From an uncultured Methanosarcinales archaeon (GTDB taxonomy: Archaea; Nanobdellota; Nanobdellia; Woesearchaeales; B54-G15): a stretch of 55,691 nucleotides of DNA. The notes under the pieces were generated by a model that ran no database searches, was not told where the DNA came from, and was given only the letters and a program-made list of their open reading frames with translations. Location of the stretch: the NCBI GenBank assembly GCA_964519225.1, contig CAZFJK010000003.1, forward strand, positions 5,061-60,751, in the 5' to 3' direction. Positions 480-55,691 of the stretch are shown here, one piece after another (positions within the stretch are counted from its first letter, which is position 1; the number at the start of each line of letters is the position of its first letter). The position numbers were made by a program, and so were the translations under genes.

Positions 480-482
480 TTT

Positions 483-1001: not shown

Positions 1002-1003
1002 TT

Positions 1004-8652: not shown

Positions 8653-8653
8653 T

Positions 8654-11600: not shown

Positions 11601-11767
11601 ACATAAGGTTTATCAGTTGGGATTTGCTGGTATTCACAATACGTTCTTGCGAAAGCGCTCTTTTTTGTTTCTTTTACTGATGCTTCTAAGAAAGCTATTG
11701 ATAGTTGGGCTGTGATGATCAAGAGCGTTGCGAGTATAAATAGATGAATAAAACAGTTTTTCTTCAT
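8654..11767 (-). CDS. Hypothetical 1037-aa secreted Cys-rich protein
   Basis: ORF track (the track starts at a GTG at 11773; an ATG at 11767 gives MKKNCFIHLFILATLLIITAQLSIAF, a Sec-type signal). Many Cys residues, often as CC/CxC pairs. I recognise no enzymatic motif. First gene of the tightly packed 5-gene minus-strand cluster. Confidence 0.8.
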   Translation of the reverse strand: MKKNCFIHLFILATLLIITAQLSIAFLEASVKETKKSAFARTYCEYQQIPTDKPYVITGFSRDKGIQYAELIYNETTGTCKLGIKKWTNKGKCYSLVPGPTLVPLKYKFPFNIQLPENAFLVGFGFDFHKGRFDSFWYSYRELNPDCSLSSVKDASSAGADKSFYQARVFVEYDDAAIVGLELGGSTNDETRFIIGYRKFKGYAQCQLEDGEWLPNAPQTGSFDEYCCYPENKGKLSPKGLKDISDYEFLCDGSIWHQAGQEPFKIYEFNKKQYISNGARWYLCNTTADTGIPDRTILSGTRESYRFICYNQKFYECCIPGETCYSKHRYPEQYTQAIYRAEPITIIDRNNYSFTYEYFKDITPHISDETISAYKSISLNINSSPPSEYLIFFINISSVKPVTEVLLASGMATNVNNLDILIRGPIFAFAREVKTGKWIRIEIPLHNVNPTDIDQIIFYTNVTAMTEPLKLKVKNIYLETKEPLFFCTDEFAQTHDYWISPEKLENSETVCSNLYTWTGTKCCYNETQSYADEKGACINGLPILENESAFFTETKGNFKKPIACKEPFCSKSIFIMQTAIQGKPTETIYSSELEEIKRDVLYSNKKFYYCQNLVSTLPLPAKTKKSEPCTTFGNYFCSYEESWSDAFSGTPASERNTTSYDPDKKTKSCCHPLFCWNGSMCLASLHDKPQQTYNISGKTYRCVYGKWIAAPLKYDWLSNQSAYCPYPEQCLVDPNGNPDNFNKPETYSPDPGYKDNPICINHSQYIFDHLCYNGEWRTRTRTLASVLLNLTTTANEFTLLCDDFKTTLPEPTLKLKYIQGESLFPAVPPTCFNFTTPVPCVNNFCVLKFIDAGKEKTLFAVSLNKPINDSEYSFLYALDLPTTYCNNVVDFDTCSNDKRIWYDRQLNAVFYSKQGITMQRGFFSRLFNIFKSIIQFITGTWKPKTMLGNLVSLSSIETHQNYDALFIAKSQNKQILALKETRANETYIVARLENITAQICDSLKNIPQTFCNATATEQTILSFNPDVWNQLIKLTPI

Positions 11768-11810
11768 TTTCACCTCTTTTTATTGTTTTGTTAAAAGGAG
11801 TGAAAAGGAT

Positions 11811-29347: not shown

Positions 29348-30343
29348 ATGAAAAAAGAGGTTTTGATTTTGGTATTTCTAGTTCTATTGTTAGTTTGTGG
29401 TGGATGCAAAAAGGCAAAAGAACCTGTTGCTGTTACTGGTATAACGCCTGCTGGTGCTGTAACGGGCACAAAAGGGATAACAATGAAGTTCGCAAAAAAT
29501 CTTCCACCAAACAGGATTTATGACACGCAGCCTTTAGATATTGTTGTTGAATTGAACAATAAAGGTGCATATGATATTGCAGGACCGGCAGACTGTATGC
29601 TTCACCTTTCTGGCTATGATGAAACAATTCTGCCCGGGATTGATAAAGATCAGGACTGCGGCTTTCTTGAAGGTGTAAGCATGTATAATCCAGACGGCGG
29701 GAGTACAACAAAAGAGTTTAGAACTGATACAATATACCTGCCTGAAGGAGTAGATGTTTATGAACCGACTTTTATGTTAACAATTTGTTATAGATACAGA
29801 ACTGTTGCCAATCCGATTGTTTGTATTGATCCGAATTATTATCAAATTACACCGCAGCAGAGGGCATGCGCTGTAAAAGATGTAACACTCCCTCGAGGAC
29901 AAGGAGCGCCTGTTTCAGTAGATAGAGTTGATGTTGATATGATGCAAGGCAAGGTTAGATTTAAGATTTATGTTTCGAATAAAGGGGGAGTTGAGATTAA
30001 ACCTGAAAAGAGGGGGATTTTTAGAAAGAAAAAGATCGCTCCTAGAAGGCTTGGTGTTGTTTTGAGTCCTGATGTTGCTGTTGCGAGGTGTCCTATGGAT
30101 TTGGAATATGGGGATTATAATATTGTCAGGTATAATGTTGAGATGACTGGAAGCTATCCTATCGAATGCAAGCCACAAATCGATGGCGAATATAAACTAA
30201 GATTGATAGATAACAAGGGAGTTATTTATTGTGTTTTTCCTGTGTCTGGAAACGAAGCTTACCAGACGCCATTGAAAATAACTTTGGATTATGTTTATAT
30301 GGATGCGGTTTCAAAAAAAGTTGAAATATTAAGAACTCCATAG
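29348..30343 (+). CDS. Hypothetical lipobox-containing secreted protein (331 aa), paralogue A
   Basis: Signal MKKEVLILVFLVLLLVCGGC (lipobox-like). Blocks shared with the next gene: GAPVSVDRVDV / GAPVHVLSVRE, LTICYRYRTVANPIVCI / AEACYEYGTRAVSRICI, PLKITLDYVYMDAVSKKVEILR / PISIELTYGYKDYIDKKLIVKH. Confidence 0.7.
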   Translation: MKKEVLILVFLVLLLVCGGCKKAKEPVAVTGITPAGAVTGTKGITMKFAKNLPPNRIYDTQPLDIVVELNNKGAYDIAGPADCMLHLSGYDETILPGIDKDQDCGFLEGVSMYNPDGGSTTKEFRTDTIYLPEGVDVYEPTFMLTICYRYRTVANPIVCIDPNYYQITPQQRACAVKDVTLPRGQGAPVSVDRVDVDMMQGKVRFKIYVSNKGGVEIKPEKRGIFRKKKIAPRRLGVVLSPDVAVARCPMDLEYGDYNIVRYNVEMTGSYPIECKPQIDGEYKLRLIDNKGVIYCVFPVSGNEAYQTPLKITLDYVYMDAVSKKVEILRTP

Positions 30344-30353: not shown

Positions 30354-31307
30354 ATGAACAAGATGAAAAAGATCGCTTTGGTTATCTTAGCTCTGGTTGT
30401 TTTGTTTATTTTAGGATGTAAAGAAGAGGTCGTAGAAGAAAAACCAGTTGTGAGTTTTATTGGCGGAAATAAAGGTGTTGAGTTGAGCTTTTTGCCAGGG
30501 GCACCGCCTGATGTTGTTTTTGATAGGAATTTTCCATTCAGCGTTGGCATTCAAGCTGAGAACGTTGGTGAGTGGGATATAACGAATCCTAAGGATTTGA
30601 CAGTAAGGCTGATCGGGATTAATCCAGCGGATTTTGGAACAAGCTTAGAAGCGTTAGAGAAAGATAGTCCAACAGCTTTAATGGGAAAACATCTTGATCC
30701 CGCTGGGAATGTGATTAGGGGGACTTTGGTTAATATTGAATTTCCTGATCTGCAATATCAGACAGAGATCACCGGTTCTGTTGAATATGTGCTTAGGGCA
30801 GAGGCATGCTATGAATATGGAACAAGGGCTGTTTCGAGAATTTGCATTTTAGACGACTTGTTGGGTGTTACAAGAAAGCCAGGAGAAAAGCCGATATGCG
30901 AGCCTAATGAAGCTAAAGCGGTTGAGAACAGTGGAGCGCCTGTTCATGTTCTAAGCGTTAGGGAAAGTGTTGCAGGACCAGATAAGGTTAGCTTAACGAT
31001 TGAGATTGGACATGTTGGTAGCGGCAGTGTGCATCAAAGGTTTAGTGAATGTGGTAGTGAGATTGCACAAAGAGACAGGGTTTATGTAAAGATTGATACT
31101 GGCTTGCCTGGATTGAGCTGTAGTGGACTTGCTGCAGGAAATGAGGGCTATATTACATTGTATGGTGGAAAGAGAGAAATAGTTTGTATGCAGCCATTGC
31201 CAACACCGAGAGGAGATTTTGAGAAACCAATTTCGATCGAACTAACATACGGCTATAAGGATTATATAGATAAGAAATTGATTGTGAAGCACGCTGGCAG
31301 TAGTTAG
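30354..31307 (+). CDS. Hypothetical lipobox-containing secreted protein (317 aa), paralogue B
   Basis: Signal MNKMKKIALVILALVVLFILGC (canonical I-L-G-C lipobox). GGAGGTGA SD 4 nt upstream of the start. Homologous blocks with 29348..30343. Confidence 0.7.
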   Translation: MNKMKKIALVILALVVLFILGCKEEVVEEKPVVSFIGGNKGVELSFLPGAPPDVVFDRNFPFSVGIQAENVGEWDITNPKDLTVRLIGINPADFGTSLEALEKDSPTALMGKHLDPAGNVIRGTLVNIEFPDLQYQTEITGSVEYVLRAEACYEYGTRAVSRICILDDLLGVTRKPGEKPICEPNEAKAVENSGAPVHVLSVRESVAGPDKVSLTIEIGHVGSGSVHQRFSECGSEIAQRDRVYVKIDTGLPGLSCSGLAAGNEGYITLYGGKREIVCMQPLPTPRGDFEKPISIELTYGYKDYIDKKLIVKHAGSS

Positions 31308-33563
31308 TTAGTGTTTTCCAGCTAAAACGAATTGAGCAAGCAATGCTTCGAGCTGAAGGAATTCATCACTTCCTTCAGTAAGTCTGAATTCGATTTCAGC
31401 ACAGAGTTCAATTAGTTTTATTTTCTTTTCATCTTTTATTGGAAGTTGCCAAATCGTTTGATGGATCTGTTTTATCATATCTTGTCCTGAAAGACCATGT
31501 TTCAGCATTGTATCTAGGAGAAGTTTTCTTGCTGTTATGAAGTCTCCTTTGATAGCTTTTTCAAGAATTGTCTTTATTTCTGTTGGTGTTGCGTATGAAA
31601 TTATTTGATAGACATCATTTACTGTAATTTGTTTTGATAGAACTGAACAGCTTTGAAGTATGTTTGTAAGCTTTCTACAATCGCCTCCTGAAACATTGAT
31701 AAGCTCCTTTTTAGCTTGTTCATCTATTTCTAGACCTTCTTTTTGTGCGATGGTGTTGATTATTTCGTAGAGCGCCTCTTCTGGTAATGGCTTGAACCTG
31801 AATATTGCACATCTGCTTTGAATGGGATCAATGATCTTGCTTGAAAAATTGCAGCTGAGGATAAAACGGCATGTCTTTGTGAACAATTCCATTGTTCTTC
31901 GCAATGCTTGCTGTGCATCTCTTGTTAAGGCGTCACTTTCATCAAGATAGATTATCTTAAATGGTATCCCGCCAAGAGCTTTTGTTCTTGCAAAGTCTTT
32001 TACCTTATTTCTTATTATGTCTATCCCTCTTTCATCGCTATTGTGTAATAGGATAGGTGTCGAACCCCCCCAAAACATTTCAATTCCTGGCACAGAAACA
32101 TCATAGACGTACCCTTCATATTTTATTTTCTTAACACTGGTAACCATTACAACATACAGGTCGGAATGGACTAATTTTTTCAGATTTTTAACTAACCTGT
32201 TTTTATCTGATAAGTTTTTGAGAAGTTTTCTTGCTATGTTTTTCGTTATTCGTTTGGATTTTTTTGAATAAAGTGAGTGTCTGAGAAGATATGTTTCTTC
32301 CAGTCCAAATTTCTCATTTAATTTGTGGAATGGTTTTGCTGGAAGAAGTTCTGACTTTATGTAAGTAAAATCTTCATTAGGTTGTATTATCCTTACCTCA
32401 CGTCCAAATACAGAAGTTTCAAATCCAGCCAATCGTCCTAGCCATGCGGTGTCGATTAAACAATTTTTTGATGTTGAAATTATTCTTGCGACCTTACCCC
32501 ATACGCCGGTTCCGTCCCCATCAAAATAACCTCTTATGAATGCTTGTTTGATGTTATCAGCTGCCGAAAAAACGAATTCAGGTATTTTTTTATGTTTTGC
32601 AGTTTTGGAGTTACTGTCATAGAAAGCGTTTCTGAAAAATTTTGTTAGTTGTGTATTGCAGACTCTGAAATGATTTGCTGTTTCTTTGTTTCTATCAAAT
32701 CCTGATTTCGCTTTATTAATTCTGAAATTTAATCCTAGTAATGAGAACATATCTGCAAGTTTTTTTAGATACTTCCTTTCTTTTTGCCCAACTGTGAAAA
32801 TTATTTGACCTCTTGTATTCTCGTTAATTGCCGTACACCCTTCAGCTAGATAGAACCCTAACATCCACGCGAAATTTTGTGTTAAATTAATTTTGTCAAA
32901 TATTTTTTTGAGCTTTGGATTCTCTTTGATTGATGAATATTTAGTGTATTTTCTAAGATCTATTTTATTAACATTTCCTTTTAGGTGTGTCTTAAAACTT
33001 ATGAGCAGGTCTCCTTTCTTTATTTCAGACGCTTTTTTAGGAACGAACCGTCCATAATCGTCAATTACTATTAAGGAATGGTCCGGACTTGTTTTTACTG
33101 ATCCCCCCTCATAATTTATTTGTATTATTTCTCGTTTTTTATGTCTGAATATATAGCTTACTGGTTGAAAAGCAATATTAAGATCTTTGTTTATTGATAA
33201 GATCTCCAAGTCATTAACGAACACCCTATTCATGTGATGGGATTTAAAATAAATTTTGTCAAGTTCTGCGAAATTAGTCCTCTTTATTACTCCATTTTTT
33301 TTAATCATTATTGGTGTATCAGGAGTAACGCTCGCGTTCAATTCTAGCAGATATCTTCGCCAAGAATTGCCGAATAGTTTTCTTGCTATAACTAAAGCCA
33401 GAGTGGTTTTTCCAACACCTGCTGGACCTGCAAATAGCATGTGAGGGAGATTCTTTTTTTCAACGAATGCCTTTATCCTTGGAATGATATGTTCTTGACC
33501 CACAATCTGCGAGAAGTCAGTTGGTCTGTATTTTTCTGTCCAGATCATACTACCTTCTGACAT
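31308..33563 (-). CDS. rfcS: Replication factor C small subunit, interrupted by an in-frame intein
   Basis: WTEKYRP, Walker A GPAGVGKTT, Walker B IIYLDESDAL, SRC motif QSRCAIFRF. 751 aa in total, 320 aa after intein removal. Confidence 0.93.
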   Translation of the reverse strand: MSEGSMIWTEKYRPTDFSQIVGQEHIIPRIKAFVEKKNLPHMLFAGPAGVGKTTLALVIARKLFGNSWRRYLLELNASVTPDTPIMIKKNGVIKRTNFAELDKIYFKSHHMNRVFVNDLEILSINKDLNIAFQPVSYIFRHKKREIIQINYEGGSVKTSPDHSLIVIDDYGRFVPKKASEIKKGDLLISFKTHLKGNVNKIDLRKYTKYSSIKENPKLKKIFDKINLTQNFAWMLGFYLAEGCTAINENTRGQIIFTVGQKERKYLKKLADMFSLLGLNFRINKAKSGFDRNKETANHFRVCNTQLTKFFRNAFYDSNSKTAKHKKIPEFVFSAADNIKQAFIRGYFDGDGTGVWGKVARIISTSKNCLIDTAWLGRLAGFETSVFGREVRIIQPNEDFTYIKSELLPAKPFHKLNEKFGLEETYLLRHSLYSKKSKRITKNIARKLLKNLSDKNRLVKNLKKLVHSDLYVVMVTSVKKIKYEGYVYDVSVPGIEMFWGGSTPILLHNSDERGIDIIRNKVKDFARTKALGGIPFKIIYLDESDALTRDAQQALRRTMELFTKTCRFILSCNFSSKIIDPIQSRCAIFRFKPLPEEALYEIINTIAQKEGLEIDEQAKKELINVSGGDCRKLTNILQSCSVLSKQITVNDVYQIISYATPTEIKTILEKAIKGDFITARKLLLDTMLKHGLSGQDMIKQIHQTIWQLPIKDEKKIKLIELCAEIEFRLTEGSDEFLQLEALLAQFVLAGKH
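32040..33332 (-). mobile_element. RFC intein (431 aa) with a LAGLIDADG homing endonuclease domain
   Basis: The host motif LELNA|SDERGID is split. The insert begins SVTPDTPIMIKKNG (Ser1), has block B TSPDHSLI, and ends STPILLHN followed by Ser+1. LAGLIDADG motifs MLGFYLAEGCT and FIRGYFDGDGTG. Junction codons verified (AGC at 33332..33330, AAT at 32042..32040). Confidence 0.85.
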
Positions 33564-33923: not shown

Positions 33924-34721
33924 TTAGATTGCTTCACAATATTCTCTAAATGAGCAATATAAACACTTTTTTGAATTTATTTTTGGTGGCGGATTTTTAG
34001 AGGATAGTAGGTCTTTTATTCTTGATATGAGGGATTTTATTTCATACGGCATAAAAGGGTTTAGGTGTAGTTTTATCTCTTGATTTCCTGAGTAGATTAT
34101 TTTTGCATAACTGACTGGTTTTTCGAAGTTTTCCCTTACAAGTAAAGCATATGCAGTTAGCTGTATTCTGTCTTGAGGCCAGATATTGTTTTTTGGCGCA
34201 AGTCCTGTTTTTAGCTCAATAGGAATGATTTTGTTTTTGTGTTCTTCTATTAAATCTACTTTTCCTTTTAGAGAAAAGGACTTTGAGCTAAGGCTGACTT
34301 CAGCCATGAAGCGAGGATATAATGCATCTATTAGAGCTTTGCCGAATAAGTTTTTTCGCATTAAGTTAGTCACGATCAAGATTCTGTTTTGAATGAATTT
34401 TTCATACGTAAGAAAGAACTGTCTTTTAATTAAGTTGGTATCTATTTGAAAATGTTTTATCTCTTTTTCTGATGCTGAGATTGTTTTTTCGATGGCGTGC
34501 TTGAGATTCTTTTTAAGAACGTCTTTTATTTTATTCATGTCTGGGCTTTTTAGCTTTTTTAATACTTTGAACTCATTTTTAAACATAAACTCTTGGGCCT
34601 GATGTTTTATCCTGCCTGCGATCATCTGCTGAGTGGGTTTTGGTTTAAAGCCAAGGACTCTTTTTAGATATAACTTTCTTTTACAATAGATAAAGCACGC
34701 TAGATCTGTTACGTTGATCAT
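33924..34721 (-). CDS. Cas4-like / RecB-family PD-(D/E)xK nuclease with a Cys cluster (stand-alone)
   Basis: 265 aa. N-terminal Cys (LACFIYCKRK), nuclease core GKVDLIEE...IPIELKTG, QLTAYALL, C-terminal CLYCSFREYC (the 1+3 Cys pattern of Cas4 Fe-S clusters). No cas genes or array nearby. Confidence 0.65.
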   Translation of the reverse strand: MINVTDLACFIYCKRKLYLKRVLGFKPKPTQQMIAGRIKHQAQEFMFKNEFKVLKKLKSPDMNKIKDVLKKNLKHAIEKTISASEKEIKHFQIDTNLIKRQFFLTYEKFIQNRILIVTNLMRKNLFGKALIDALYPRFMAEVSLSSKSFSLKGKVDLIEEHKNKIIPIELKTGLAPKNNIWPQDRIQLTAYALLVRENFEKPVSYAKIIYSGNQEIKLHLNPFMPYEIKSLISRIKDLLSSKNPPPKINSKKCLYCSFREYCEAI

Positions 34722-45904: not shown

Positions 45905-47368
45905 ATGCGAAACGAGACGAAGTTGCTTGTGTTGCTTTTTTTAGTCCTGCTTGGCGTAAGACTGTATCTTGCTTTTCAACAATCTGGTTTGGTTCTTGAT
46001 GCTTACAGGGAAGTTAGAAATCTTCAGTTGGTTGAGAAAAAGATCTTTCCAACGTATGATCCGCTTAGCTTTGGTGGAAAAAGAGTAGTTATCCTTCCAC
46101 TTGGATATTTTGTTTATGCTTTTTTCGATATTTTTCTGCCGAAGATGTTGCTGTTTAAGCTTTTGCCGAATCTGTTTTTATCCGGATTGTTTCTTCTTTT
46201 TTACTGGATCAGCAGGGACGTGATTAGCGACAGGCGGATTGCGGTTTTAGCGAGTTTTGCGTGCGCTGTTATGCCTGTAATTTTTGCTGATGCTTTTTCT
46301 TTTTCGACCTTGATTATTGCTGTTTTGGTTTATCTTGTTTTGATTAAGGTTTTAATGAATATGAGGGAGCACAATTTGAAGTATATTGCCGTCATTATGT
46401 TGCTTTTACCTTTTATTCACGCTTCTGCTGTATTGGTCGGAGTTGGATTTTTGATTTATTTATTATTGGTGAAGTTCGAGAGGCTGAAGCAGAGGAGAAT
46501 AGAGCTTGAGGTTTTGCTTTTCTTCTTCGTTTATATCATTTGGATTTATTTGATTCTATTCAAGGGCGCACTGTTAATGCATGGCATAGATGCTTTCTGG
46601 CAGAATGCTAAGCACAGCAGGTATGCTGTTGATTTTCTAAAATTTGTTAGGGATGTTGGTGCGGTTCCGCTTCTTTGCGTTGTTTTCTTAATTTACAAAT
46701 ATTTCTTTGTAAGCAAAGATAAGAGGGTATATCTTCTTACAAGCTTTTTCATCGCTTCATTTGTTTTTTACCTATTTGGGTTCTTAGCTGAGAAGGAGAT
46801 TCTGCTTTTAGTTAGTTGTTTTGTTGGTTTGATTTTCATTAGGTTTGTTGACGACTTTTATAGGTATCTATCAAAAACCAAGTTTGATGGCGTAAAGGAA
46901 AAACTTGTTACTGGCTTTCTCATTTTTGTTATTTTGACGAATATATTTTTTGGATTCGTTTTGTTGAGAGAGCGAGAAAAACTGATACCGTCCGAGGATA
47001 GCATAGAAGCAATGAAGTGGTTAAGAGAACATACGCCTGAGGATGCTGTTATTGTTGCGAGCGTACAAGAAGGCAGCATGATTACAGCTATTGCTCAAAG
47101 AAAGAACATCGCTGATACAAATCGACTTTTTTCAAAAGATGCGTTAATTAGAGAGATTGATATAAAAAGATTGTACCTATCTCCATTTAAAACAGATGCT
47201 GTTAGGACTATGAGCGATTATAATGCTGAATATCTTGTTTTTTCAGGATTCACCAAAAATATTTTTGGCATAGAGCACCTGGCTTTTGCTGAACCTGATT
47301 GTTTTGAATTGGTAAGGAATGGCGAAACAAAAATCTATAAAAGGATTTGCGAGTTGAAAACAAGATGA
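45905..47368 (+). CDS. GT-C-fold polytopic membrane protein, STT3/AglB-like but lacking WWDxG
   Basis: 487 aa with about 11 TM helices plus a C-terminal soluble domain. The first-loop LDAYREVRN resembles the AglB D-x-Y-Y-H-x-R loop. AMKWLREHTPEDAVIVASVQEGSMITAIAQRKNIADTN aligns by eye to the STT3 ...WL.ENTPED..V.SWWDYGY.I......R....D region, with SVQEG (47060..47074) in place of WWDYG. Confidence 0.55.
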   Translation: MRNETKLLVLLFLVLLGVRLYLAFQQSGLVLDAYREVRNLQLVEKKIFPTYDPLSFGGKRVVILPLGYFVYAFFDIFLPKMLLFKLLPNLFLSGLFLLFYWISRDVISDRRIAVLASFACAVMPVIFADAFSFSTLIIAVLVYLVLIKVLMNMREHNLKYIAVIMLLLPFIHASAVLVGVGFLIYLLLVKFERLKQRRIELEVLLFFFVYIIWIYLILFKGALLMHGIDAFWQNAKHSRYAVDFLKFVRDVGAVPLLCVVFLIYKYFFVSKDKRVYLLTSFFIASFVFYLFGFLAEKEILLLVSCFVGLIFIRFVDDFYRYLSKTKFDGVKEKLVTGFLIFVILTNIFFGFVLLREREKLIPSEDSIEAMKWLREHTPEDAVIVASVQEGSMITAIAQRKNIADTNRLFSKDALIREIDIKRLYLSPFKTDAVRTMSDYNAEYLVFSGFTKNIFGIEHLAFAEPDCFELVRNGETKIYKRICELKTR

Positions 47369-48726
47369 GATTTTCAAATAAACTGGTTTGCATTGTATTC
47401 TTGCTGATATTTTTAGGGCTCGGGCTTGTTCTCTATTTCCTGCGCTTTGATAGGCTTTTTCCTTTAGGCGAGAGCTATTATCTTTTATCTGTTGCTGGCA
47501 AGCTTAGCGGCAGGGATCTTGTTGGCAGAGAGCTTGGATTTAGTTTAGTAAGGTTTATTTATCTTTTGCCAGCAAGGATCATCCCTCTTATTGGCATTGC
47601 AGTTGGTTCTTTCAGTTTTATTTTTCTTTATTTGATAATGCGGAGATTGAATTATAAGCCTTTGAGAACCTTTTCAACATTGCTTTTGATTGTTTGTTCG
47701 CCGTCTATTTTCTTTCTCTTTTATTCTGCTACGGCGCACGCCTTTTGCGTTTTCTTTATTATTCTCGGAGTTTATCTTCAGATATCTGAAAGAAGGATGA
47801 TTTATCCTGTGATTTGTTTTTTGATCGGCGTTCTTTTTTCTCCGGTCGGCATTACAGCAGTTCCCCTGAGTTTGTTTATTTATAAAGAAAAGGGATTTGG
47901 AAAAAAGAAGTATCTTTTGGTTGTTTTGTTGGCTTTTTTTGTTCATCTTGGATATTTGATAAGGAATCTTACGCTGCCTGTAGTTAAGAGTAATGCAGTA
48001 AAGATTCTGCTTTCTGATTTGGGAAGCTGGACTGGAAATGGATTTTTTTGCGTAGTTTTTTTTCTGATGGGTCTGTACTTTTTATGGAAACAAAAGAAAA
48101 GAGTTCTGCTTTTTAGCAGTATAATCCTGGCTTTTATTGTCGGCTTTTATTTTGATTTTTTGTTTTATTATCTATCATTTTTGATTTGCTGGGTTGGCGG
48201 AACAGGCCTTTACAGGTTTATAAAGATGAGGTGGACGCTTAAATTCTTTAAGAGAATTGTTGTTGGTGTTGCTTTGTTCGGGATTGCTTTTTCTATGCTT
48301 ACTGCTTTTGTTGGTTTTGTTAAGTCAGAGCCTTTACAGGAGCAGCTTGACGGTTTGGTTTGGTTGAGGGCGCATAGTGGAAAGGATGCTGTTGTTTTAG
48401 CTGATAGGGAGAAAGGATTTATGATTGAAGGCGTTGCAAACAGGGCAGTTGTTATGGATGATTTGCTTCTTTATACGAGGGACGCAAGAGAAAGGATTGA
48501 TGATTTGAGTATAATTTTTCAATCGTATAGCTTGAGGAAGACAATGGCTTTCCTTGATAAGCATAATATTAGTTATATATGGATTGATAGGGATATGAGA
48601 GAAAGGATATGGAATAATGAAGAAAAAGGATTGATTTTTGTTTTGAGGAATAAAATTTTTAAAAAGGAGTTTGAGAATTCTTTTGTTGAGATTTATAGTT
48701 ATAATCCAGAGGCGGTTGAGAGATGA
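47365..48726 (+). CDS. Second GT-C-fold STT3/AglB-like membrane protein, paralogue, also lacking WWDxG
   Basis: The ATG at 47365 overlaps the upstream stop (ATGA). First-loop GESYYLLS. LVWLRAHSGKDAVVLADREKGFMIEGVANRAVVMDD has DREKG (48403..48417) in place of WWDYG. Confidence 0.55.
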   Translation: MRFSNKLVCIVFLLIFLGLGLVLYFLRFDRLFPLGESYYLLSVAGKLSGRDLVGRELGFSLVRFIYLLPARIIPLIGIAVGSFSFIFLYLIMRRLNYKPLRTFSTLLLIVCSPSIFFLFYSATAHAFCVFFIILGVYLQISERRMIYPVICFLIGVLFSPVGITAVPLSLFIYKEKGFGKKKYLLVVLLAFFVHLGYLIRNLTLPVVKSNAVKILLSDLGSWTGNGFFCVVFFLMGLYFLWKQKKRVLLFSSIILAFIVGFYFDFLFYYLSFLICWVGGTGLYRFIKMRWTLKFFKRIVVGVALFGIAFSMLTAFVGFVKSEPLQEQLDGLVWLRAHSGKDAVVLADREKGFMIEGVANRAVVMDDLLLYTRDARERIDDLSIIFQSYSLRKTMAFLDKHNISYIWIDRDMRERIWNNEEKGLIFVLRNKIFKKEFENSFVEIYSYNPEAVER

Positions 48727-49955
48727 TATGGAACTTTGAAACGATTTTGCTTTGTATAGTTTGCTTTTTTGGTCTTTATTCAAGCTTGTTTTTTTTGTTT
48801 TTAATTCTTGATAATAGAGAAAGGCTTGATGATCCAAAGCCTAAGAGGTTCCCGAGCGTTACGATAATAGTTCCTGCCTATAATGAGGAGCGCACAATTG
48901 CAAAGACGTTAAGGAGTTTGCTAAAACTTGATTATCCAAGAAACAAGCTGAAGATATTTGTTATAGATGATGGTTCAACTGACAGGACATACGAGATAGC
49001 AAAAAAATTTGAAGATGCAAACAAAGGTTTGGTTAAGGTTTTTACAAAGCCGAATGGCGGAAAGGCAAGCGCACTGAATTATGGGATAAAAAGAACAAAA
49101 AGCGAACTGATTGTTTCTTTGGATGCAGATAGTTTTGTGAGTAAGGATACATTAAAAAGGATGGTTGGTTATTTTGATGATCCTGTTGTTATGGCTGTGA
49201 CGCCAGCTCTTAAAGTGTATAAGCCAAAAGGCTTTTGGAGGAGGATACAGGCAATGGAGTACCTGCTCGGTGTTTTTTTAAGAAAGGCTTTTGCTTTGCT
49301 TGGAGGTATTCATGTTACACCTGGACCATTTTCAGCGTACAGAAGAAAATTCTTTGAACGCTACGGCTACTATGATGAAGGAAATCTTACTGAAGATATA
49401 GAGGTTGCTTTGAGAATACAGGCAAAAGGATATGATATTGAGAATTCGATTAAGGCAGAGGTGTTTACTGTTGCTCCCAACAGGTTTTTGCCGTTGCTCA
49501 GGCAGAGGCTCAGATGGTATACTGGATTTATAGTTAATCTATTTAGGTATAGAAGCTTGTTTAAGCAAAGAAATAATTTAGGACTTTTTGTCCTGCCGAC
49601 GTCGTTGATTTCGGTTGGTTTGGTTTTGGTTACAGCTGGATTTTCTTGTTATATTCTAATTAAATCTCTTACGCATTTATTTAGATCTATAAAGCTGCTC
49701 GGCTTTTTAGATGCGATAAAAATGTTGAAGTTGAATTTGAATCCTTTTTATTTTGGAAATGAATTTGTTATTGTTACTGCCTCATGTTTTGTGCTTGGAT
49801 TTTTGATCATTTATTCTGCAAAGCTTTTTTCAAGAGAACGGAGTAAGATAAAATATAGCTATCTTTTGTATGTGCTGATTTATTATTATTTATTTGGGTT
49901 TTGGTGGTTTTGGACTTTGATTAATAGGTTGTTTGGAAGGCAGATAAAATGGTAA
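48723..49955 (+). CDS. Membrane-embedded family-2 glycosyltransferase, processive-synthase-like
   Basis: N-terminal TM, VTIIVPAYNEE, VIDDGSTD, LDADS, TEDIEVALR, QRLRW (QxxRW), then about 3-4 C-terminal TM helices. This is the architecture of NodC/IcaA/chitin-synthase-type enzymes. Confidence 0.75.
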   Translation: MIWNFETILLCIVCFFGLYSSLFFLFLILDNRERLDDPKPKRFPSVTIIVPAYNEERTIAKTLRSLLKLDYPRNKLKIFVIDDGSTDRTYEIAKKFEDANKGLVKVFTKPNGGKASALNYGIKRTKSELIVSLDADSFVSKDTLKRMVGYFDDPVVMAVTPALKVYKPKGFWRRIQAMEYLLGVFLRKAFALLGGIHVTPGPFSAYRRKFFERYGYYDEGNLTEDIEVALRIQAKGYDIENSIKAEVFTVAPNRFLPLLRQRLRWYTGFIVNLFRYRSLFKQRNNLGLFVLPTSLISVGLVLVTAGFSCYILIKSLTHLFRSIKLLGFLDAIKMLKLNLNPFYFGNEFVIVTASCFVLGFLIIYSAKLFSRERSKIKYSYLLYVLIYYYLFGFWWFWTLINRLFGRQIKW

Positions 49956-50593
49956 ATAGGAAAAAAGTTATTTTAAGAAGATATTTGGTTGCGCTTATTT
50001 TAACTGTTTTGATTTTCCTTATTGGGGTTTTGCTTGGAGGGGGTATTGCAAACATTAAGCTTGGTAAGCTTGCAAAGCTTGAGAGGGAGATGAAAACAAG
50101 GATTATGGATTTAGAGTTGCAATTCTTGCTTGCTGAAGAACAGCCTTGCAGCAGTGAATTGCCAGGCCTTGCTGAAGAACTTTATCAGATAGGTGGAAAG
50201 TTAAACTATATGGAAAGGCAAAAAGGAGTCGATGACCCTGATGTAATTGAACTTAAAAAATATTACAGCCTTCTTCAGATAAGACATTGGCTTTTTTTGA
50301 AGATGGTAAAAAAGCGATGCAAAAAGGATTTACACTTGATTCTTTATTTTTATTCCAATGAACCAAAAAAATGTGATAGGTGCGGTGATCAGGGAATTAT
50401 ATTAAGTTATTTAAGGGAAAAATATCCTAATGTTAGGGTTTATTCTTTTGATGTCGGACTTGATTCTGGAGCGATAAAGACTTTGATGAAGAATTTTAAA
50501 GTCGAGGTTGTGCCGACCGTTGTTGTTGATGGAAAAGCTTTGTATGGTTTTCAGGAAAAAGAAAAGCTGGAAGGGTTGCTTCAAGGTTCGTGA
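49949..50593 (+). CDS. Membrane-anchored thioredoxin-fold protein with a CxxC motif, predicted to face outside
   Basis: The N-terminus MVNRKKVILRRYLVALILTVLIFLIGVLLGG is a signal anchor (positive-inside). Trx-like core LILYFYS..CDRCG (CxxC 50372..50383) ...VRVYSFDV...VVPTVVVDGKALYG, with a cis-Pro-type VPT. Confidence 0.6.
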   Translation: MVNRKKVILRRYLVALILTVLIFLIGVLLGGGIANIKLGKLAKLEREMKTRIMDLELQFLLAEEQPCSSELPGLAEELYQIGGKLNYMERQKGVDDPDVIELKKYYSLLQIRHWLFLKMVKKRCKKDLHLILYFYSNEPKKCDRCGDQGIILSYLREKYPNVRVYSFDVGLDSGAIKTLMKNFKVEVVPTVVVDGKALYGFQEKEKLEGLLQGS

Positions 50594-51456: not shown

Positions 51457-51465
51457 TTTATAAAA
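51457..51465 (+). promoter_or_regulatory. Candidate TATA box for the prepilin-like operon
   Basis: TTTATAAAA lies 38-46 nt upstream of the ATG at 51503. GAGGTGA (51492..51498) lies 4 nt upstream of the ATG. Confidence 0.35.
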
Positions 51466-51502
51466 TAACAAAGAATGATAAGGAAATAAAAGAGGTGAAA
51501 CT

Positions 51503-51829
51503 ATGCTTGGAAAAAAAGGACAAGGGCTACCTATTACTGTTATTATAATAGCAGCGATTGCTCTTGTAATTCTTGTTGTTTTGGTTGCAATGTTTATTGG
51601 TAAGATGGGTATTTTTGGCAAGAAGGTTACAACAGTGACTGAGATAAGCTGTACTGAGAGCTGCTTTACGAACGCGCAAGGTGCAAGGGTTCATGGTGTT
51701 GTTATGCCCGGACCGACCTGTCCTGCTGAGGAAGGATATCGCGAGGTATTGGGGAGTTTTAGAGATGTAGGACCAGGAGAAGTTTGTTGTATTAAAGATG
51801 ATCAAGAGGTAGATGATGCTGGCTGCTAG
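51503..51829 (+). CDS. Small Cys-rich prepilin-like protein (108 aa)
   Basis: MLGKKGQGLPITVIIIAAIALVILVVLVAMFIG (K-G-Q + hydrophobic helix), then a Cys-rich ectodomain ending GEVCCIKDD... Confidence 0.7.
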   Translation: MLGKKGQGLPITVIIIAAIALVILVVLVAMFIGKMGIFGKKVTTVTEISCTESCFTNAQGARVHGVVMPGPTCPAEEGYREVLGSFRDVGPGEVCCIKDDQEVDDAGC

Positions 51830-52076
51830 GAAAGGACAGGCTACTGTGCTTAGGATTTTAGTTATTGCGGTCTTGCTTTTAGTTGTTCTTTCAATAATGA
51901 TTATTTTCTTTACAGGAAAGTTCAGGTTGTTCAGTAAAGGATTGGTCAGTTGCGAAGGTAGGGGCGGCATATGCAAAGAAAAGCCATGCAGCGAATATGG
52001 GATGGCAACGATTGCAAATAGTGATTGTCCACAAATTAATAAATCAACGCCGTATTGTTGTGTTCCAGTAGAATGA
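51813..52076 (+). CDS. Small Cys-rich prepilin-like protein (87 aa)
   Basis: MMLAARKGQATVLRILVIAVLLLVVLSIMIIFF fits the class III signal pattern (K-G-Q-A-T-V). The Cys-rich ectodomain ends TPYCCVPVE. 17-nt overlap with the upstream gene. Confidence 0.7.
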   Translation: MMLAARKGQATVLRILVIAVLLLVVLSIMIIFFTGKFRLFSKGLVSCEGRGGICKEKPCSEYGMATIANSDCPQINKSTPYCCVPVE

Positions 52077-52201
52077 GCAACCGGAAGAAAAGCCGCTCTG
52101 GCTTGGCAGCAAAAACGCTTTTGCTGATTATTATTGCGATTGCTCTCGGATTGATGTTTTTAGCTATTGTTATGAGGATAAGACATGCTATACTTAAATA
52201 A
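52073..52201 (+). CDS. Possible 42-aa single-TM micro-protein
   Basis: My own translation: MSNRKKSRSGLAAKTLLLIIIAIALGLMFLAIVMRIRHAILK*. The ATG overlaps the upstream stop (ATGA). Below the track's cutoff. Confidence 0.4.
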   Translation: MSNRKKSRSGLAAKTLLLIIIAIALGLMFLAIVMRIRHAILK

Positions 52202-52919
52202 GCGCGGGCAGGCAAAGTTTTTGGTAACGATAATGATAGTTATAATTGGGTTTATTGTTGTTTTTGCTGTTGTGAGAATGTTTGCTTCTAAGGCAGGGGG
52301 AACACAGCTCGAAATGCAATGCAGGGCAAGTGTTTTAGCCAGAGCTAAAAGTTTAGTGAATGTTGAAGTTGGTGTTGTTAAAGTAAATGTTCATGTTGCG
52401 CCTCTACTCTGCTTTACGCAAGAGAAAACGATAAAAGGGAATGATGAGGAAGTGATGGAACAGCTTGCTGAACTGATGCTGCGCTGCAAATGGATGTTTG
52501 CTGACGGACGATATAATAATGTACTTGGCGGCGAATCTGGCGATCAATGTTTTCCATGCTATACTGTGAAGATCGATTCTGATGTTGAAATTCCTGCCTG
52601 GGAATTCAAGGAATTTTTAAGGACAAAGAAGAAGAAAGGCAAGCTTTTATGGAACTTACTTCAGGAACCTGTTGGAATGAGGGTTCTTGTTCCAAAGGAG
52701 ATAAAAGGAAAGCATATTTATCAAGTGATGTATTCTGATTTTTCAAAAGGTAGATGGTATGTTCCTGTCCTTGAAGGTGAAAATACAGGACCGAATGGGA
52801 TTTATTTGGTTGATCCGAACGATATGCCTGAAACCTGGTATAGAGAATATCAATGGTTTTTGAAAGAGGTCGTTGGTTTAAAGAGTGTTGAATATGAAAC
52901 GTGTAAGATTTGGAGTTAA
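52185..52919 (+). CDS. Prepilin-like secreted protein (244 aa)
   Basis: MLYLNKRGQAKFLVTIMIVIIGFIVVFAVVRMF (R-G-Q + hydrophobic helix). The ectodomain has no recognised motif. Confidence 0.65.
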   Translation: MLYLNKRGQAKFLVTIMIVIIGFIVVFAVVRMFASKAGGTQLEMQCRASVLARAKSLVNVEVGVVKVNVHVAPLLCFTQEKTIKGNDEEVMEQLAELMLRCKWMFADGRYNNVLGGESGDQCFPCYTVKIDSDVEIPAWEFKEFLRTKKKKGKLLWNLLQEPVGMRVLVPKEIKGKHIYQVMYSDFSKGRWYVPVLEGENTGPNGIYLVDPNDMPETWYREYQWFLKEVVGLKSVEYETCKIWS

Positions 52920-52929
52920 AGGTTTAGCA

Positions 52930-53049
52930 ATGAGAACAATCTTGGTCATTTTAATACTTGTAGCTCTCCTGGTTTTTGTTATTATATTTTACAAACATGT
53001 CGGAGAAGGTGCGAAAAAAATAGCCGAAAGTCTTTTTGGAATGTTTTAA
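52930..53049 (+). CDS. Possible 39-aa single-TM micro-protein
   Basis: My own translation: MRTILVILILVALLVFVIIFYKHVGEGAKKIAESLFGMF*. Fills the gap between two operon genes exactly. Confidence 0.4.
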   Translation: MRTILVILILVALLVFVIIFYKHVGEGAKKIAESLFGMF

Positions 53050-53050
53050 A

Positions 53051-54424
53051 ATGGCATTGAATTGGTTAATCAAATGGATAGCTTTGATACTCACTGCCTT
53101 GCTTATTATTTCTATCTTTTTTGGCGGACCGCATGCTTTTTTTCCAAAGCTGTTTAGAGCAGTGAAAAGCTTGACGAAAGTTGTTAAGATAGGTGCGGAA
53201 GAAATGCGTGCCGAAGAAAAAGAGACTGTTCCAAAAGCAGTAAAAGATTACTTTGATACTCTTTGTTATAAACTTAAGAAGTACAGCAAGACGCGACACA
53301 GAGATTGGCCGGGATGCTATATTTTCTTACCAGACCCGCCTGAAGATATGGGTGGTGCTAAGATTGTATTTCAAAATATGTTGAAGAGAAAGGAGAGCGA
53401 ACTAGGCATTCCTATTGAATATAGTGTTTTGAAGATATCTTTATTTACAAAAGGAGATAAGCTTGTTGACTGGTGTTTGGTAAATCTAAGTAGGATTGCT
53501 GCGGTCGATCCGAAAAGCTTTTTTGAGGATGTTAGGAATTGGAGGGAAAGATGGAGTCCTAGATATAATATTTCGTGTTCTCTTGGTGGAATTGGTGGAG
53601 AATTTATTCTTACAGATAAGCAAAAGATGTGGGATTACAGCTTGGAGGATCACTTTGATGATATTGTTATTTACAGAAGAACACATCTTAAAGGAATACC
53701 GGAAACTAGTTTTTGTTTTTTCCTAACGAAAGATCTTGGCGGAAAAACCGGTAAAAGTTATGAAGGTGTTGCAATAAATGAATGGTTTAGGCATTGGTTT
53801 TTTATCGGGATGACAGGTTATAAGGAGAAATATCCTTTTTTAAGGTGTGAAGAAAATGAACAAACGCTTTGGGAGTTTTATAACGAAAAAGGAAATGATT
53901 TGCTTAACTTGGCGTTGAAATCTAATCTGAGTGCTGAATCGCAAAAAGCTTGTTCAGAGGCTTTTACTTTTTTTGCGCCCATAATTGATTTCTATGGTGA
54001 TATGGTTGATGAAGAAACTATTTGCAGGATTAAATTTAAGCTTATTGGCAGCGAGCTCTGTAGTGGTAATATTGAGCATGCAAAATCTCTTGCCGATCGC
54101 TTTGGCAGTGAATGTAAATTCGATGGCGTGCTGGGAAATTGTTCTGATGAGTTCATTGCAACTTTGAAAAAGGCTGATGGACTTAGCGCAGGAGACTTAA
54201 AAGATGTTTTTATTTTTCTTGATGTGTTTGATGTGATTGATTTCTTTTGGAAAGGAAAAGATGAGCTAAAAGTTCCAGGATTGCTGTCTGAATTGATTGA
54301 GCGAAAAGGTGTTTTTTCAGGGACGGCAGAGAAGTGCGCTGATTATTATTGTAAGACGCATGGCAGCTGGCTTAAATGGGAAAACGAAACACTTTATAAC
54401 AAGATTTGCGGAGGTGTTGTTTGA
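53051..54424 (+). CDS. Hypothetical N-terminally anchored extracytoplasmic protein (457 aa)
   Basis: The ATG at 53051 (MALNWLIKWIALILTALLIISIFFGG) is preferred over the track's TTG at 53036. W- and C-rich ectodomain with no recognised motif. Confidence 0.65.
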   Translation: MALNWLIKWIALILTALLIISIFFGGPHAFFPKLFRAVKSLTKVVKIGAEEMRAEEKETVPKAVKDYFDTLCYKLKKYSKTRHRDWPGCYIFLPDPPEDMGGAKIVFQNMLKRKESELGIPIEYSVLKISLFTKGDKLVDWCLVNLSRIAAVDPKSFFEDVRNWRERWSPRYNISCSLGGIGGEFILTDKQKMWDYSLEDHFDDIVIYRRTHLKGIPETSFCFFLTKDLGGKTGKSYEGVAINEWFRHWFFIGMTGYKEKYPFLRCEENEQTLWEFYNEKGNDLLNLALKSNLSAESQKACSEAFTFFAPIIDFYGDMVDEETICRIKFKLIGSELCSGNIEHAKSLADRFGSECKFDGVLGNCSDEFIATLKKADGLSAGDLKDVFIFLDVFDVIDFFWKGKDELKVPGLLSELIERKGVFSGTAEKCADYYCKTHGSWLKWENETLYNKICGGVV

Positions 54425-54747
54425 TGAAAAAAGGAATGTTGCCTTTGCAATTGGTTGTTTTGATTATAATTTTGTTGGTTGCCTTGGCTGTTGTGATTGT
54501 CTGGTTTACAGGAACTTTTAGAAAGCAGGCAGGAGTAATTGGTGTTGAGCTTAATAAGTTGTATGATTGTGATTGCGACGGCATTAGGAATATGCTCGAT
54601 AAATGTCCATGTATTTATGCAGAAACTGAAAACGGATGTCCTGAAGGTGTTTCTGCTACTGGATGTACGCAGGATCAGATAAGGACATGCAATAAGTACG
54701 GCTATATTCCTGGCGGGCATTGTCCTGCTGCGCCGCCTGAAAAGTAA
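54424..54747 (+). CDS. Small prepilin-like protein carrying a thrombospondin-type-3-like Ca-binding motif (107 aa)
   Basis: ATG at 54424, with GGAGGTG 9 nt upstream: MKKGMLPLQLVVLIIILLVALAVVIVWF. DCDCDGIRNMLDKCPC (54565..54612) matches the DxDxDGxxDxxDxCP logic seen in the giant protein. Confidence 0.65.
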   Translation: MKKGMLPLQLVVLIIILLVALAVVIVWFTGTFRKQAGVIGVELNKLYDCDCDGIRNMLDKCPCIYAETENGCPEGVSATGCTQDQIRTCNKYGYIPGGHCPAAPPEK

Positions 54748-54748
54748 G

Positions 54749-55210
54749 ATGAAAAAAGGAGCAATTCCGTTAAGATTTTTGGTCTCTTTGATTTTAGCTA
54801 TTGTTATTTTTCTTCCTGTTATTCTGATTTTATCAAAGTGTTCTACGCTGACTGCAGAAGGAAAATTGAAGAAAGGCTTGACTGATTTGCTCGAGGCAGC
54901 AAGCAAACTCAAGCCTAGAGAAGTTGATGCTGTTTTGATTTTTATTCCTGCTGGATATGAGATACATTTTGGTGCTGTTGGCTGCAAAGGACTAATATGG
55001 GTAAAGAAAGAAGGTAAGGAAATATTTCGTTTAGAGAAGGATAATGCGCCTTTTAGGGCAAGGATTAAGGATAAAGGAAAGGTTGGCTTTCTTTTTATCA
55101 TGCCAGAAAATACTGATAGATATATCGCATTGCAGATAAGAAAATGGCCTAAAGGAAGTAGTGAAACATTACCAGGCTGCGAGGTTGTAACTATAAATAA
55201 ACAAAAATGA
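54749..55210 (+). CDS. Prepilin-like secreted protein (153 aa)
   Basis: MKKGAIPLRFLVSLILAIVIFLPVILIL (K-G-A + hydrophobic helix). 1 nt after the upstream stop. Confidence 0.65.
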   Translation: MKKGAIPLRFLVSLILAIVIFLPVILILSKCSTLTAEGKLKKGLTDLLEAASKLKPREVDAVLIFIPAGYEIHFGAVGCKGLIWVKKEGKEIFRLEKDNAPFRARIKDKGKVGFLFIMPENTDRYIALQIRKWPKGSSETLPGCEVVTINKQK

Positions 55211-55691
55211 TTGGAAAAAAAGGAGCAAGTGTTTTGATGCTGATTTTTGAGATTTTGGTTGTTGTTGCTGTCTTAAAGGTTATGCTTGATTTTACCTATA
55301 AATCTGCGAACAGCGAATCCAATCAGAGGGTTGTTTTTGCAAGGAATCTTGGTCTTGCGGCTGAAGCTGCTTTTGCATTTGACGGAAATAGTTGGAGCAT
55401 GATAGGCGCATTTCCTGATTTAGAAGAATATAGTTGCGATGTAAAGGAGAATACGGTTGTAGTGAAGCATAGAAATTTTAGCTGGAAAAAGGCAGAGGGA
55501 ACTTTCCATCCTGCTGGAATGTTTAATGTTTTGTGTCCGCTGGAAAGTTCAAAAATTTTGAAGTACGATAATAGGGTTTTGATCGGGCTTCCAGAGGAAG
55601 AGTATTTTCGCAGAGGATATCAGACTTTTACTCAGGATTTTTCTTTGCTTGGGTTTGATGTTAGATCTGAGTGCGATGATGAAAAAGCAGA
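55207..55691 (+). CDS. Prepilin-like secreted protein, partial (3' end runs off the window)
   Basis: Not in the track. My own translation from the ATG at 55207 (ATGA overlap): MIGKKGASVLMLIFEILVVVAVLKVMLDF... stays open to 55691. K-G-A-S-V-L fits the class III signal pattern. Confidence 0.6.
   Translation, partial: MIGKKGASVLMLIFEILVVVAVLKVMLDFTYKSANSESNQRVVFARNLGLAAEAAFAFDGNSWSMIGAFPDLEEYSCDVKENTVVVKHRNFSWKKAEGTFHPAGMFNVLCPLESSKILKYDNRVLIGLPEEEYFRRGYQTFTQDFSLLGFDVRSECDDEKA

Follow-up and report, generated by a model that had tools for sequence, protein, structure and literature searches.

At the 3′ end of the 55,691-nucleotide (nt) stretch of archaeal DNA analysed here (contig CAZFJK010000003.1; hereafter the window), a run of tightly packed genes begins behind a TATA-box-like promoter element and continues past the last nucleotide of the sequence. 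Apart from gene 6, which is predicted to yield a large ectoprotein, this operon appears to encode only type IV pilin-like proteins. An initial annotation had placed nine open reading frames (ORFs) at this location, with starts at 51503, 51813, 52073, 52185, 52930, 53051, 54424, 54749 and 55207, and had proposed that the first of them is preceded by a TATA box and a Shine-Dalgarno (SD) sequence. All nine starts were recovered, the tight packing was borne out by junctions of −17 to +10 nt between the nine ORFs, and the six N-termini quoted in that annotation are exact. Its count of at least nine genes stands as far as these nine are concerned, but the total is amended to 12, with three genes lying beyond the window end. 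The features are listed below in amino acids (aa) where a product is described; a slash marks the predicted cleavage junction, and L numbers denote related loci.

51457–51467, + strand: TATA-box-like promoter element TTTATAAAATA, about 36 nt 5′ of the gene 1 ATG and invariant in 6 related loci.
51492–51498, + strand: gene 1 SD sequence GAGGTGA; AAAAGAGGTGA is invariant in 6 loci.
51503–51829, + strand: gene 1, 108 aa, prepilin-like, MLGKKG/QGLPITVIII..., with a 27-residue hydrophobic stretch and a small head containing 6 Cys.
51813–52076, + strand: gene 2, 87 aa, prepilin-like, MMLAARKG/QATVLRILVI..., with 6 Cys in the head and a KGQ site as in EppA-processed Epd pilins.
52073–52201, + strand: gene 3, 42 aa, a single helix, MSNRKKSRSG/LAAKTLLL..., with a weak S-G/L motif.
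52185–52919, + strand: gene 4, 244 aa, prepilin-like, MLYLNKRG/QAKFLVTIMI..., with a variable head containing 6 Cys.
52894–53049, + strand: gene 5, 51 aa after its start was re-called, MKRVRFGVKG/LAMRTILVIL..., short, prepilin-like and headless, with a mature length of about 41 aa.
53051–54424, + strand: gene 6, a 457-aa ectoprotein, N-terminally anchored or secreted, with 14 Cys and 5 N-X-S/T sequons.
54424–54747, + strand: gene 7, 107 aa, prepilin-like, MKKG/MLPLQLVVLIIILL..., with 8 Cys in the head; the most conserved gene.
54749–55210, + strand: gene 8, 153 aa, prepilin-like, MKKG/AIPLRFLVSL...; the junction is KEG/A in L002, KKG/T in L013, CRA/S in L014 and KHG/I in L016.
55207–55691, + strand: gene 9, truncated by the window end to 161 of about 252 aa, MIGKKG/ASVLMLIFEILVVV..., prepilin-like, with an extra C-terminal alpha/beta module.
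52335–54420, + strand: hypervariable cassette of about 2.1 kb comprising the gene 4 head, gene 5 and gene 6, with approximate boundaries drawn from DNA identity between the window and L009.

A search of 5.8 billion proteins returned just two homologues of the 457-aa gene 6 product, and the contigs that carry them, L002 (17.2 kb) and L003 (10.9 kb), are both syntenic with the window operon. Further relatives (L007, L009, L013, L014, L015 and L016) were found by a metagenome scan and a full HMMER search with a gene 9 profile, and Logan fragments of 1.3 kb and 2.7 kb derive from the window's own population. By synteny with L002 and L003, the 12-gene operon spans about 6 kb and runs about 2 kb past the window end. 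Including relatives, the products of genes 1–6 measure 106–108, 87, 41–42, 239–244, 51 and 457–471 aa, and those of genes 7–12 measure 107, 140–153, 250, 140, 171 and 215–219 aa, the full length of gene 9 being taken from P0006 and L002. In syntenic relatives the operon is followed by an RPA-like gene, YdjM, a small ORF and RadA with an intein, and on its 5′ side YjbQ and an MBF1-like helix-turn-helix gene lie on the opposite strand. L014 preserves the same gene order and the same RPA-YdjM-RadA surroundings at about 20–50% identity.

One conserved TATA promoter drives the whole operon. The invariance of the TATA box and SD sequence, which upholds the annotated start of gene 1, extends to L007 and L011 despite their differing upstream flanks. 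Comparison with two syntenic relatives reveals purifying selection on all 12 genes, micro-ORFs included, with dN/dS values of 0.05–0.30. Two antisense ORFs (51527–51976 and 54394–55101, − strand; 149 and 235 aa) were rejected as genes because the selection signal sits in the + strand frames, and they are probably composition artefacts.

Because the pilin models of Pfam and NCBIfam find no match among the window proteins, the case for class III (prepilin) signal peptides in the operon rests on the behaviour of the N-terminal motif. The proteins follow a common plan, in which a basic leader of 3–9 residues ending in Gly or Ala precedes a hydrophobic helix of 17–28 residues and a variable head, the latter being absent from genes 3 and 5. 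In genes 1, 2, 4, 7, 8 and 9, and in gene 12 of L002, [KR]-G is followed by 17–28 hydrophobic residues; gene 5, when read from the ATG at 52894, also carries the leader motif, and gene 3 carries it weakly (S-G). When 493 ATG-started ORFs were scanned for [KR][GA] plus a hydrophobic run, the motif was found almost exclusively in the operon and in a group of genes near the window start (the first locus, described below), and the binomial probability of at least 7 motif genes among 12 by chance is between 1e-9 and 5e-5. In other exported proteins of the window the signal is of Sec or lipobox type with a short h-region, or there is a plain anchor that lacks G or A.

The junction is also retained over long evolutionary distances. 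The residue at −1 is exclusively G or A across all relatives, which are about 20–50% identical, while the codons used for it vary (GGA, GGG, GGT, GCC and GCA). We considered the possibility that K-K-G merely reflects codon bias (AAA AAA GGA) and rejected it, as the Gly/Ala and Lys/Arg codons differ among orthologues; the gene 1 orthologue in L007 even reads KKA/Q, with G replaced by A at −1. Over the first 40 residues, motif-bearing genes are 72–100% identical, compared with 26–69% for the heads (90% versus 69% in gene 1, 97% versus 39% in gene 4 and 72% versus 26% in gene 8; the gene 7 head reaches 91% against its closest relative, L009). The corresponding N-termini of genes 3, 5, 6 and 11, counted as motif-less in this comparison, are 50–54% identical, with gene 10 an exception at 82%. 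The contrast is also seen in gene 4, whose first 50 or so codons are almost invariant at the DNA level (3 nt differences in 150 nt relative to L005) before diverging sharply, and whose N-terminal 51 residues are identical in a homologue with a head of only about 39% identity.

Several of the junctions correspond to sites of known processing. The KGQ and RAQ junctions of the window equal the sites KGQV, KGQL, KGQI and RAQI of Methanococcus maripaludis Epd pilins processed by EppA (PMC4371748). Genes 1, 2 and 4 have Gln at +1, as do three proteins of the first locus, and genes 5, 7, 8 and 9 have L, M or A at this position. The orthologue of gene 7 in L014 (49% identity, E 7e-19, plus synteny), with the N-terminus MKKG/FSALEIVVAIIILL (MKKG/FSALE...), passes NCBIfam model TIGR02532, the curated prepilin-type N-terminal cleavage/methylation domain, at 18.4 bits against a cut-off of 16.3 and over model positions 1–24 of 24; with Pfam N_methyl (PF07963) it scores 18.0 bits, just below the cut-off of 21.2. 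Remote relatives of gene 9 form a family of 8 clusters that are 19–30% identical and share KKG[AS]S..LM.FE.LVV with invariant F14 and E15, and this conserved F-E in the helix is reminiscent of bacterial pilin N-termini. Cys makes up 3.2% of the ectodomains compared with 1.2% of cytoplasmic proteins and occurs almost always in even counts, which fits extracellular, disulfide-bonded heads. Judged by these N-termini, 11 of the 12 operon genes are predicted to be class III-type across the family, gene 6 alone being excluded.

The shortest genes required reinterpretation. The ORF previously reported at 52930 as a 39-aa micro-ORF does exist, but its start is most likely the ATG at 52894, which gives a 51-aa product with its own K-G motif; this start is chosen by gene callers on L002 and L003, and a divergent gene 5 allele in L009 and L005 has another leader but keeps the motif (MLKKAKKG/LAMRTIL). 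The view of the micro-ORFs as plain single-transmembrane (TM) peptides therefore gives way to one in which both probably encode short prepilins, gene 5 with its K-G motif and gene 3 with S-G/L. Gene 3 is probably a headless (Flp/EpdE-like) short pilin and a paralogue of gene 5, although its assignment is less certain because the Ser at −2 is weak; its orthologue in L007 reads MSKKA/LAMKTLV, with a K-A/L junction. Against Pfam Flp1_like (PF16982), gene 5 scores 19.1 bits where the cut-off is 33.5, and gene 3 gives no match.

Beyond the window end, genes 10 and 11 carry junctions in distant relatives (NKSG/QFDVARKT, NKKA/QFELTRKT, KKG/VMDDW, KKG/IIEDI and KKG/MMDDF; loci compared were L002 12912–13851, L014 2306–3294, L015 1477–2100 and L016 1359–2331). 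In the window lineage they begin with MVSAYAIAKK... and MLEDVIDL..., and because these starts fall approximately at the predicted mature +1 residue, the two genes appear to be leaderless pilin-like derivatives. Gene 12 has KKG/T in L014 and [KR]-G followed by a hydrophobic run in L002 too.

Among the heads, that of gene 7 has an invariant segment at residues 48–63, DCDCDG[IV]RNxxDKCPC, which resembles a thrombospondin type 3 calcium-binding repeat (TSP_3, E 0.03). Gene 9 was modelled with AlphaFold2 (AF2), which placed its N-terminal pilin module below 50 in predicted local distance difference test (pLDDT) score and its C-terminal beta-alpha-beta module at 67–89. Foldseek detected a weak likeness of the latter module to the Zn-hydrolase/Amidase_3 fold (E 7e-3 to 3e-2, none at or below 1e-3), which we take as a hint only of a hydrolase-like fold. 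As the domain contains no His, and hence no metal ligands, it is probably non-catalytic. One remote relative of gene 9, P0017, joins the same pilin module to a true N-acetylmuramoyl-L-alanine amidase domain (Amidase_3, 2.9e-8), and the pairing of a pilin scaffold with a cell-wall amidase in a DPANN-like lineage would merit a closer study of its own.

In relatives, the centre of the operon gives way as a unit to unrelated sequence, between flanks that stay about 90–96% identical. DNA identity between the window and L009, resolved at 90 nt, is 94–96% up to about position 52300, drops to 62–64% in the proximal part of the gene 4 head, and lies at 32–50% through the rest of gene 4 and genes 5 and 6, apart from 64% and 61% in the comparison windows at 52934 and 53114; it returns to 80–90% from about 54460, inside gene 7. 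Gene 6, which alone among the operon genes has no [K/R]-[G/A] junction across the family, is the most variable gene, with a hypervariable ectodomain and an identity of 74–76% even between closer relatives. At least three unrelated alleles exist (the window/L002, L009 and L013 types), with no similarity beyond the first 70–150 aa or so, and gene 6 has no Pfam, NCBIfam or PDB match. The cassette is thus an allelic replacement of a module that is predicted to be exposed, set between conserved and putatively recombination-competent flanks.

The first locus, at window positions 1–11773, consists of − strand ORFs at 8654–11773, 6673–8652, 1004–6685, 483–1001 and 1–479. A 659-aa protein encoded there starts with MRRA/QITIFIV, the same RAQI site as in M. 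maripaludis EpdA, and tandem paralogues start with MNKKA/QIQRVFF (172 aa) and MKNKKA/QVQHVFF (159 aa or more, truncated at the window start). A 1893-aa adhesin-like protein contains two CarboxypepD_reg domains, fn3, Big_1, a bacterial TSP3 repeat and an internal MRKRG/VFFIVAV, and a 1039-aa protein has a Sec-like signal. The TSP3-like motif common to gene 7 and the 1893-aa protein may represent a shared calcium-binding surface motif. The earlier tally of at least nine prepilin-like genes in the window holds, and up to 12 are counted when the first locus is included.

Just 5′ of the operon lies a + strand block of four genes (45905–50593) that is conserved in L002 and L010. It encodes two large multi-TM proteins (487 and 459 aa), for which a weak DUF6798/DUF6541 match suggests GT-C-like enzymes, a GT2 glycosyltransferase of 410 aa, and a membrane-anchored protein of 214 aa whose C-terminal part is thioredoxin-like (C-x-x-C) and which gives a weak HyaE match. 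This block may serve to glycosylate the Cys-rich heads and to form their disulfides. In L011, an extra GT-C glycosyltransferase gene (2040–3473; 477 aa; PMT_2 8.9e-10, Glyco_transf_22) is located between YjbQ and gene 1, directly 5′ of the conserved promoter.

Taken together, these features make it probable that the locus is a pilin-only operon whose products are processed and assembled by machinery encoded elsewhere, and that a replaceable adhesive module is exposed on the resulting filament. The subunit set for a type IV-like filament proposed in the initial annotation is well supported at its core by junction conservation, conserved helices, Epd-like sites and the TIGR02532 match, with the qualification that no window protein reaches a curated pilin model. 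A tip-complex role for the 457-aa protein, raised as a possibility in that annotation, stays conjectural; this protein lacks the motif and varies more than any other operon product. For the cleavage, polymerisation, subunit roles, adhesion and overall function of these proteins, we infer the following scheme. The operon proteins would insert into the membrane with the N-terminus inside and the C-terminus outside, and a class III (prepilin) peptidase encoded elsewhere would cleave after G or A. A FlaI/PilB-type ATPase and a FlaJ/TadC-type platform, likewise encoded elsewhere, would pull the hydrophobic N-terminal helices from the membrane, and the extracted helices would pack into a helical filament. 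The bulk subunit would come from one or two genes, for which gene 1 and, by analogy with EpdE and Flp, the headless genes 3 and 5 are candidates, and the remaining pilin-like proteins would be subunits of low abundance with a part in priming the fibre or decorating it. The disulfide-rich heads, together with the cassette (the gene 4 head, gene 5 and the 457-aa gene 6 product), would form the exposed, adhesive and partner-recognising part.

A number of observations weigh against this interpretation. Even at E≤1, none of the curated Pfam or NCBIfam models for pilins, archaellins or class III signals is matched by the operon proteins of the window. TIGR02532 and PF07963 detect no window protein, gene 7 included, and the same is true of the Pfam models for archaeal pilin N-termini, class III signals and Arch_flagellin, the last of which gave a non-significant E of 0.093 with one remote gene 9 relative. 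No family was assigned when all operon proteins, together with their L002 counterparts, were scanned against Pfam and NCBIfam. Sequence searches of the PDB with gene 4, gene 6 and gene 9 profiles and with the L014 gene 7 orthologue gave nothing significant, the best match being alpha1 of Thermus thermophilus PilA5 at E 1.9. Atypical residues occur near several junctions: genes 1, 7 and 8 have Pro at +3/+4, genes 2, 4 and 8 have Lys or Arg at +3 to +6, and gene 3 has Ser at −2; Glu is found at +5 in no window gene, and genes 6, 10 and 11 are without a leader in the window lineage. The AF2 models have mean pLDDT values of 51 for gene 4 and 55 for gene 9. That of gene 4, built from 3 sequences, consists of a helix at residues 6–53 followed by alpha/beta structure, and a Foldseek comparison with the PDB returned noise and no meaningful pilin match.

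Weighing against it as well is the lack of a peptidase, ATPase or platform gene in the 55.7-kb window and in about 5 kb of syntenic downstream sequence. T2SSE, T2SSF and Peptidase_A24 domains are present in none of the large window ORFs or syntenic flanks, so the statement that no assembly machinery lies at the operon is sustained. The accompanying expectation that pilin clusters normally sit beside such machinery does not apply in archaea, where the pilin genes pilA1-6 of Haloferax volcanii, EpdD/E of M. maripaludis and subsystem 4E are unlinked to it. Because archaeal pilin loci are commonly unlinked, the missing adjacent machinery is not anomalous, and a cluster of this kind without it should be regarded as normal. 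The archaeal type IV filament (TFF) ‘System 1’, which is Epd-like, occurs in DPANN and includes many pilins as well as standalone pilins.

The same proteins could have class III-type signals and use type IV machinery, but form a short pseudopilus or bindosome-like platform for cargo display or export or for DNA uptake. The models for this proposal are the pseudopilins of the type II secretion system (T2SS), ComG competence pili and the Sulfolobus bindosome, and the cargo would be the 457-aa protein or enzyme modules. The presence of 9–11 different pilin-like genes, none obviously dominant, does resemble pseudopilin and ComG sets, and archaeal class III signal peptide (SPIII) proteins that functionalise TFF machineries have been proposed to be widespread (bioRxiv 10.64898/2026.04.22.720090). 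The hydrolase-like fold of the extra gene 9 module and the Amidase_3 fusion in P0017 point in the same direction, but the gene 9 module lacks metal ligands. Likewise, the L014 gene 7 orthologue gives weak matches to ComGE and ComGF, but these lie far below their cut-offs (20 bits versus 49 and 12 bits versus 80). As no ABC transporter, substrate-binding domain or DNA-uptake gene is located in or adjoining the operon, and headless short pilins such as genes 3 and 5 are typical of fibre-forming Epd and Flp systems, we consider a pseudopilus unlikely.

Decidedly less credible is a proposal in which the N-termini are uncleaved type II signal anchors and the operon specifies a membrane-anchored complex for the envelope or for cell contact that has nothing to do with type IV filaments, with K-K-G reflecting only the positive-inside rule and AT-rich codon bias. 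It would account for the lack of matches to pilin models, the uninformative structure models, the absence of machinery within 60 kb, the plain anchors of genes 6, 10 and 11, and the fact that the motif is most often coded by AAA AAA GGA. However, other anchored or secreted proteins of the same AT-rich window have no G or A at the junction, and the G or A at −1 is kept through different codons and through exchange of one for the other in relatives down to about 20% identity. In simple anchors it is usually the ectodomain, and not the TM helix, that is better conserved, and the operon shows the reverse; moreover, an orthologue (L014 gene 7) passes TIGR02532 and the junctions are identical to proven EppA sites. 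An integrated virus or mobile element, or spurious ORFs in AT-rich DNA, might be suspected from the replaceable cassette and from the fact that all products are ORFans at the family level. Against this stand purifying selection on the genes, the lack of integrase, capsid or tRNA features, a fixed chromosomal slot between YjbQ/MBF1-like and RPA-YdjM-RadA that is kept even by relatives only about 20% identical, and the absence of relatives in 2.9 million viral contigs. Given this chromosomal context and the lack of viral relatives, a mobile or viral origin is effectively excluded, and spurious ORFs are hardly conceivable.

The sharply bounded cassette of the operon suggests diversifying surface recognition, for which the relationship between cassette allele and co-occurring host provides a handle. 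As a tentative and frankly doubtful extension, we propose that the cassette is a swappable partner-recognition module on the type IV filament of an episymbiotic DPANN archaeon. Recombination at the near-invariant DNA of the gene 4 N-terminal helix and at the gene 7 start would swap unrelated alleles of the whole adhesive module and so set or switch the host or surface, and some lineages would arm the scaffold with enzymes. Attachment to other cells is the way of life of DPANN archaea, and little is known of how partners are recognised and held. The operon offers a concrete, conserved and promoter-defined set of 9–11 pilin-like genes, which annotation pipelines would miss because the families are absent from Pfam and NCBIfam.

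The host of the operon is a DPANN archaeon related to the Guaymas Basin ‘Candidatus Woesearchaeota’ metagenome-assembled genome (MAG) B54_G15. This placement was made because the only genome record with a gene 6 relative in a scan of genome collections is ‘MAG: Candidatus Woesearchaeota archaeon isolate B54_G15’ (QMQQ01000009.1). The gene content of the window is archaeal and of small-genome type, with about 37% GC, and includes TBP, MCM with an intein, PolD DP1/DP2, Cdc6, RFC with an intein, Hjc, aIF2 subunits and a tRNA-splicing endonuclease; scanning the window for tRNAs and Rfam families gave no match. The inteins of MCM (13422–17060, + strand) and RFC (31308–33563, − strand) have LAGLIDADG homing-endonuclease domains. 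With the RadA intein of syntenic relatives (L003 8505–10865 and L014 6824–9376), three replication or recombination genes bear inteins in one small-genome lineage. Elsewhere in the window, tandem lipobox proteins of 331 and 317 aa (29348–30343 and 30354–31307, + strand; ...LLLVCGGC and ...FILGC) have no Pfam match. A solitary Cas4/PD-(D/E)XK nuclease gene is present at 33924–34721 on the − strand (Cas_Cas4 5.8e-21), and there are no other cas genes among the Pfam-scanned window ORFs, repeats not having been searched.

The kind of system to which the operon belongs is already known, in that archaeal type IV pilin-like proteins, standalone pilin loci included, have been described. The operon is a new, lineage-specific case, with sequence families that curated libraries do not contain, and it is noteworthy in three respects: its size for a pilin-only operon, its leaderless derivatives and the sharp limits of its cassette. 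Bacterial minor-pilin operons, such as fimU-pilVWXY1E of Pseudomonas aeruginosa, GspH-K of the T2SS and ComGC-GG, combine several small pilin-like genes with one large non-pilin surface protein, and the alleles of the block vary between strains. The operon described here likewise has several small pilin-like genes, one large non-pilin gene (gene 6) and an allele-variable block, and the N-terminus of the L014 gene 7 orthologue is of the bacterial G/FxxxE type recognised by TIGR02532. It differs in its archaeal host, in having no homology to PilY1, GspK or ComG, and in comprising 9–11 pilin-like genes rather than 4–5, headless short pilins among them. Gene 9 and its relatives resemble modular type IV pilins such as Streptococcus sanguinis PilB (PMC8179133) in carrying an extra C-terminal module, and P0017 extends this likeness with its bona fide Amidase_3 domain; the gene 9 module itself has no metal ligands and only a weak likeness to the hydrolase fold (E 7e-3), and is probably non-catalytic.

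With the adhesion pilins of H. volcanii (pilA1-6, standalone genes) and the split subsystem 4E of Pyrobaculum, the operon shares a conserved H-domain and variable heads, and the Cys-rich heads recall the disulfides of the Pyrobaculum pilin. Those loci, however, are single genes or pairs rather than a translationally coupled 12-gene operon, and their junctions read D-A/V-S or R-A/V-S; no Pilin_N or related Pfam domain is found in the proteins studied here. The comparison with the Epd pilins of M. maripaludis (System 1; EpdA-E and EppA) also has two sides. Pilins of the Epd/EppA type are recognised by Gln at +1 and commonly Glu at +5 (PMC4371748), whereas no window gene has Glu at +5 and Gln occupies +1 in just 3 of 9 operon junctions, the others having A, M or L. 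There is no detectable sequence homology, the operon heads are Cys-rich, and the 11-gene cluster of M. maripaludis holds a peptidase, two platform genes and an ATPase where the 12-gene operon has none. Nevertheless, both systems use a short basic leader with a K-G/Q or R-A/Q junction and many different pilin-like genes per genome, some Epd genes (EpdD and EpdE) lie off the machinery locus, and the major Epd pilin is, like the products of genes 3 and 5, a pilin without a head domain.

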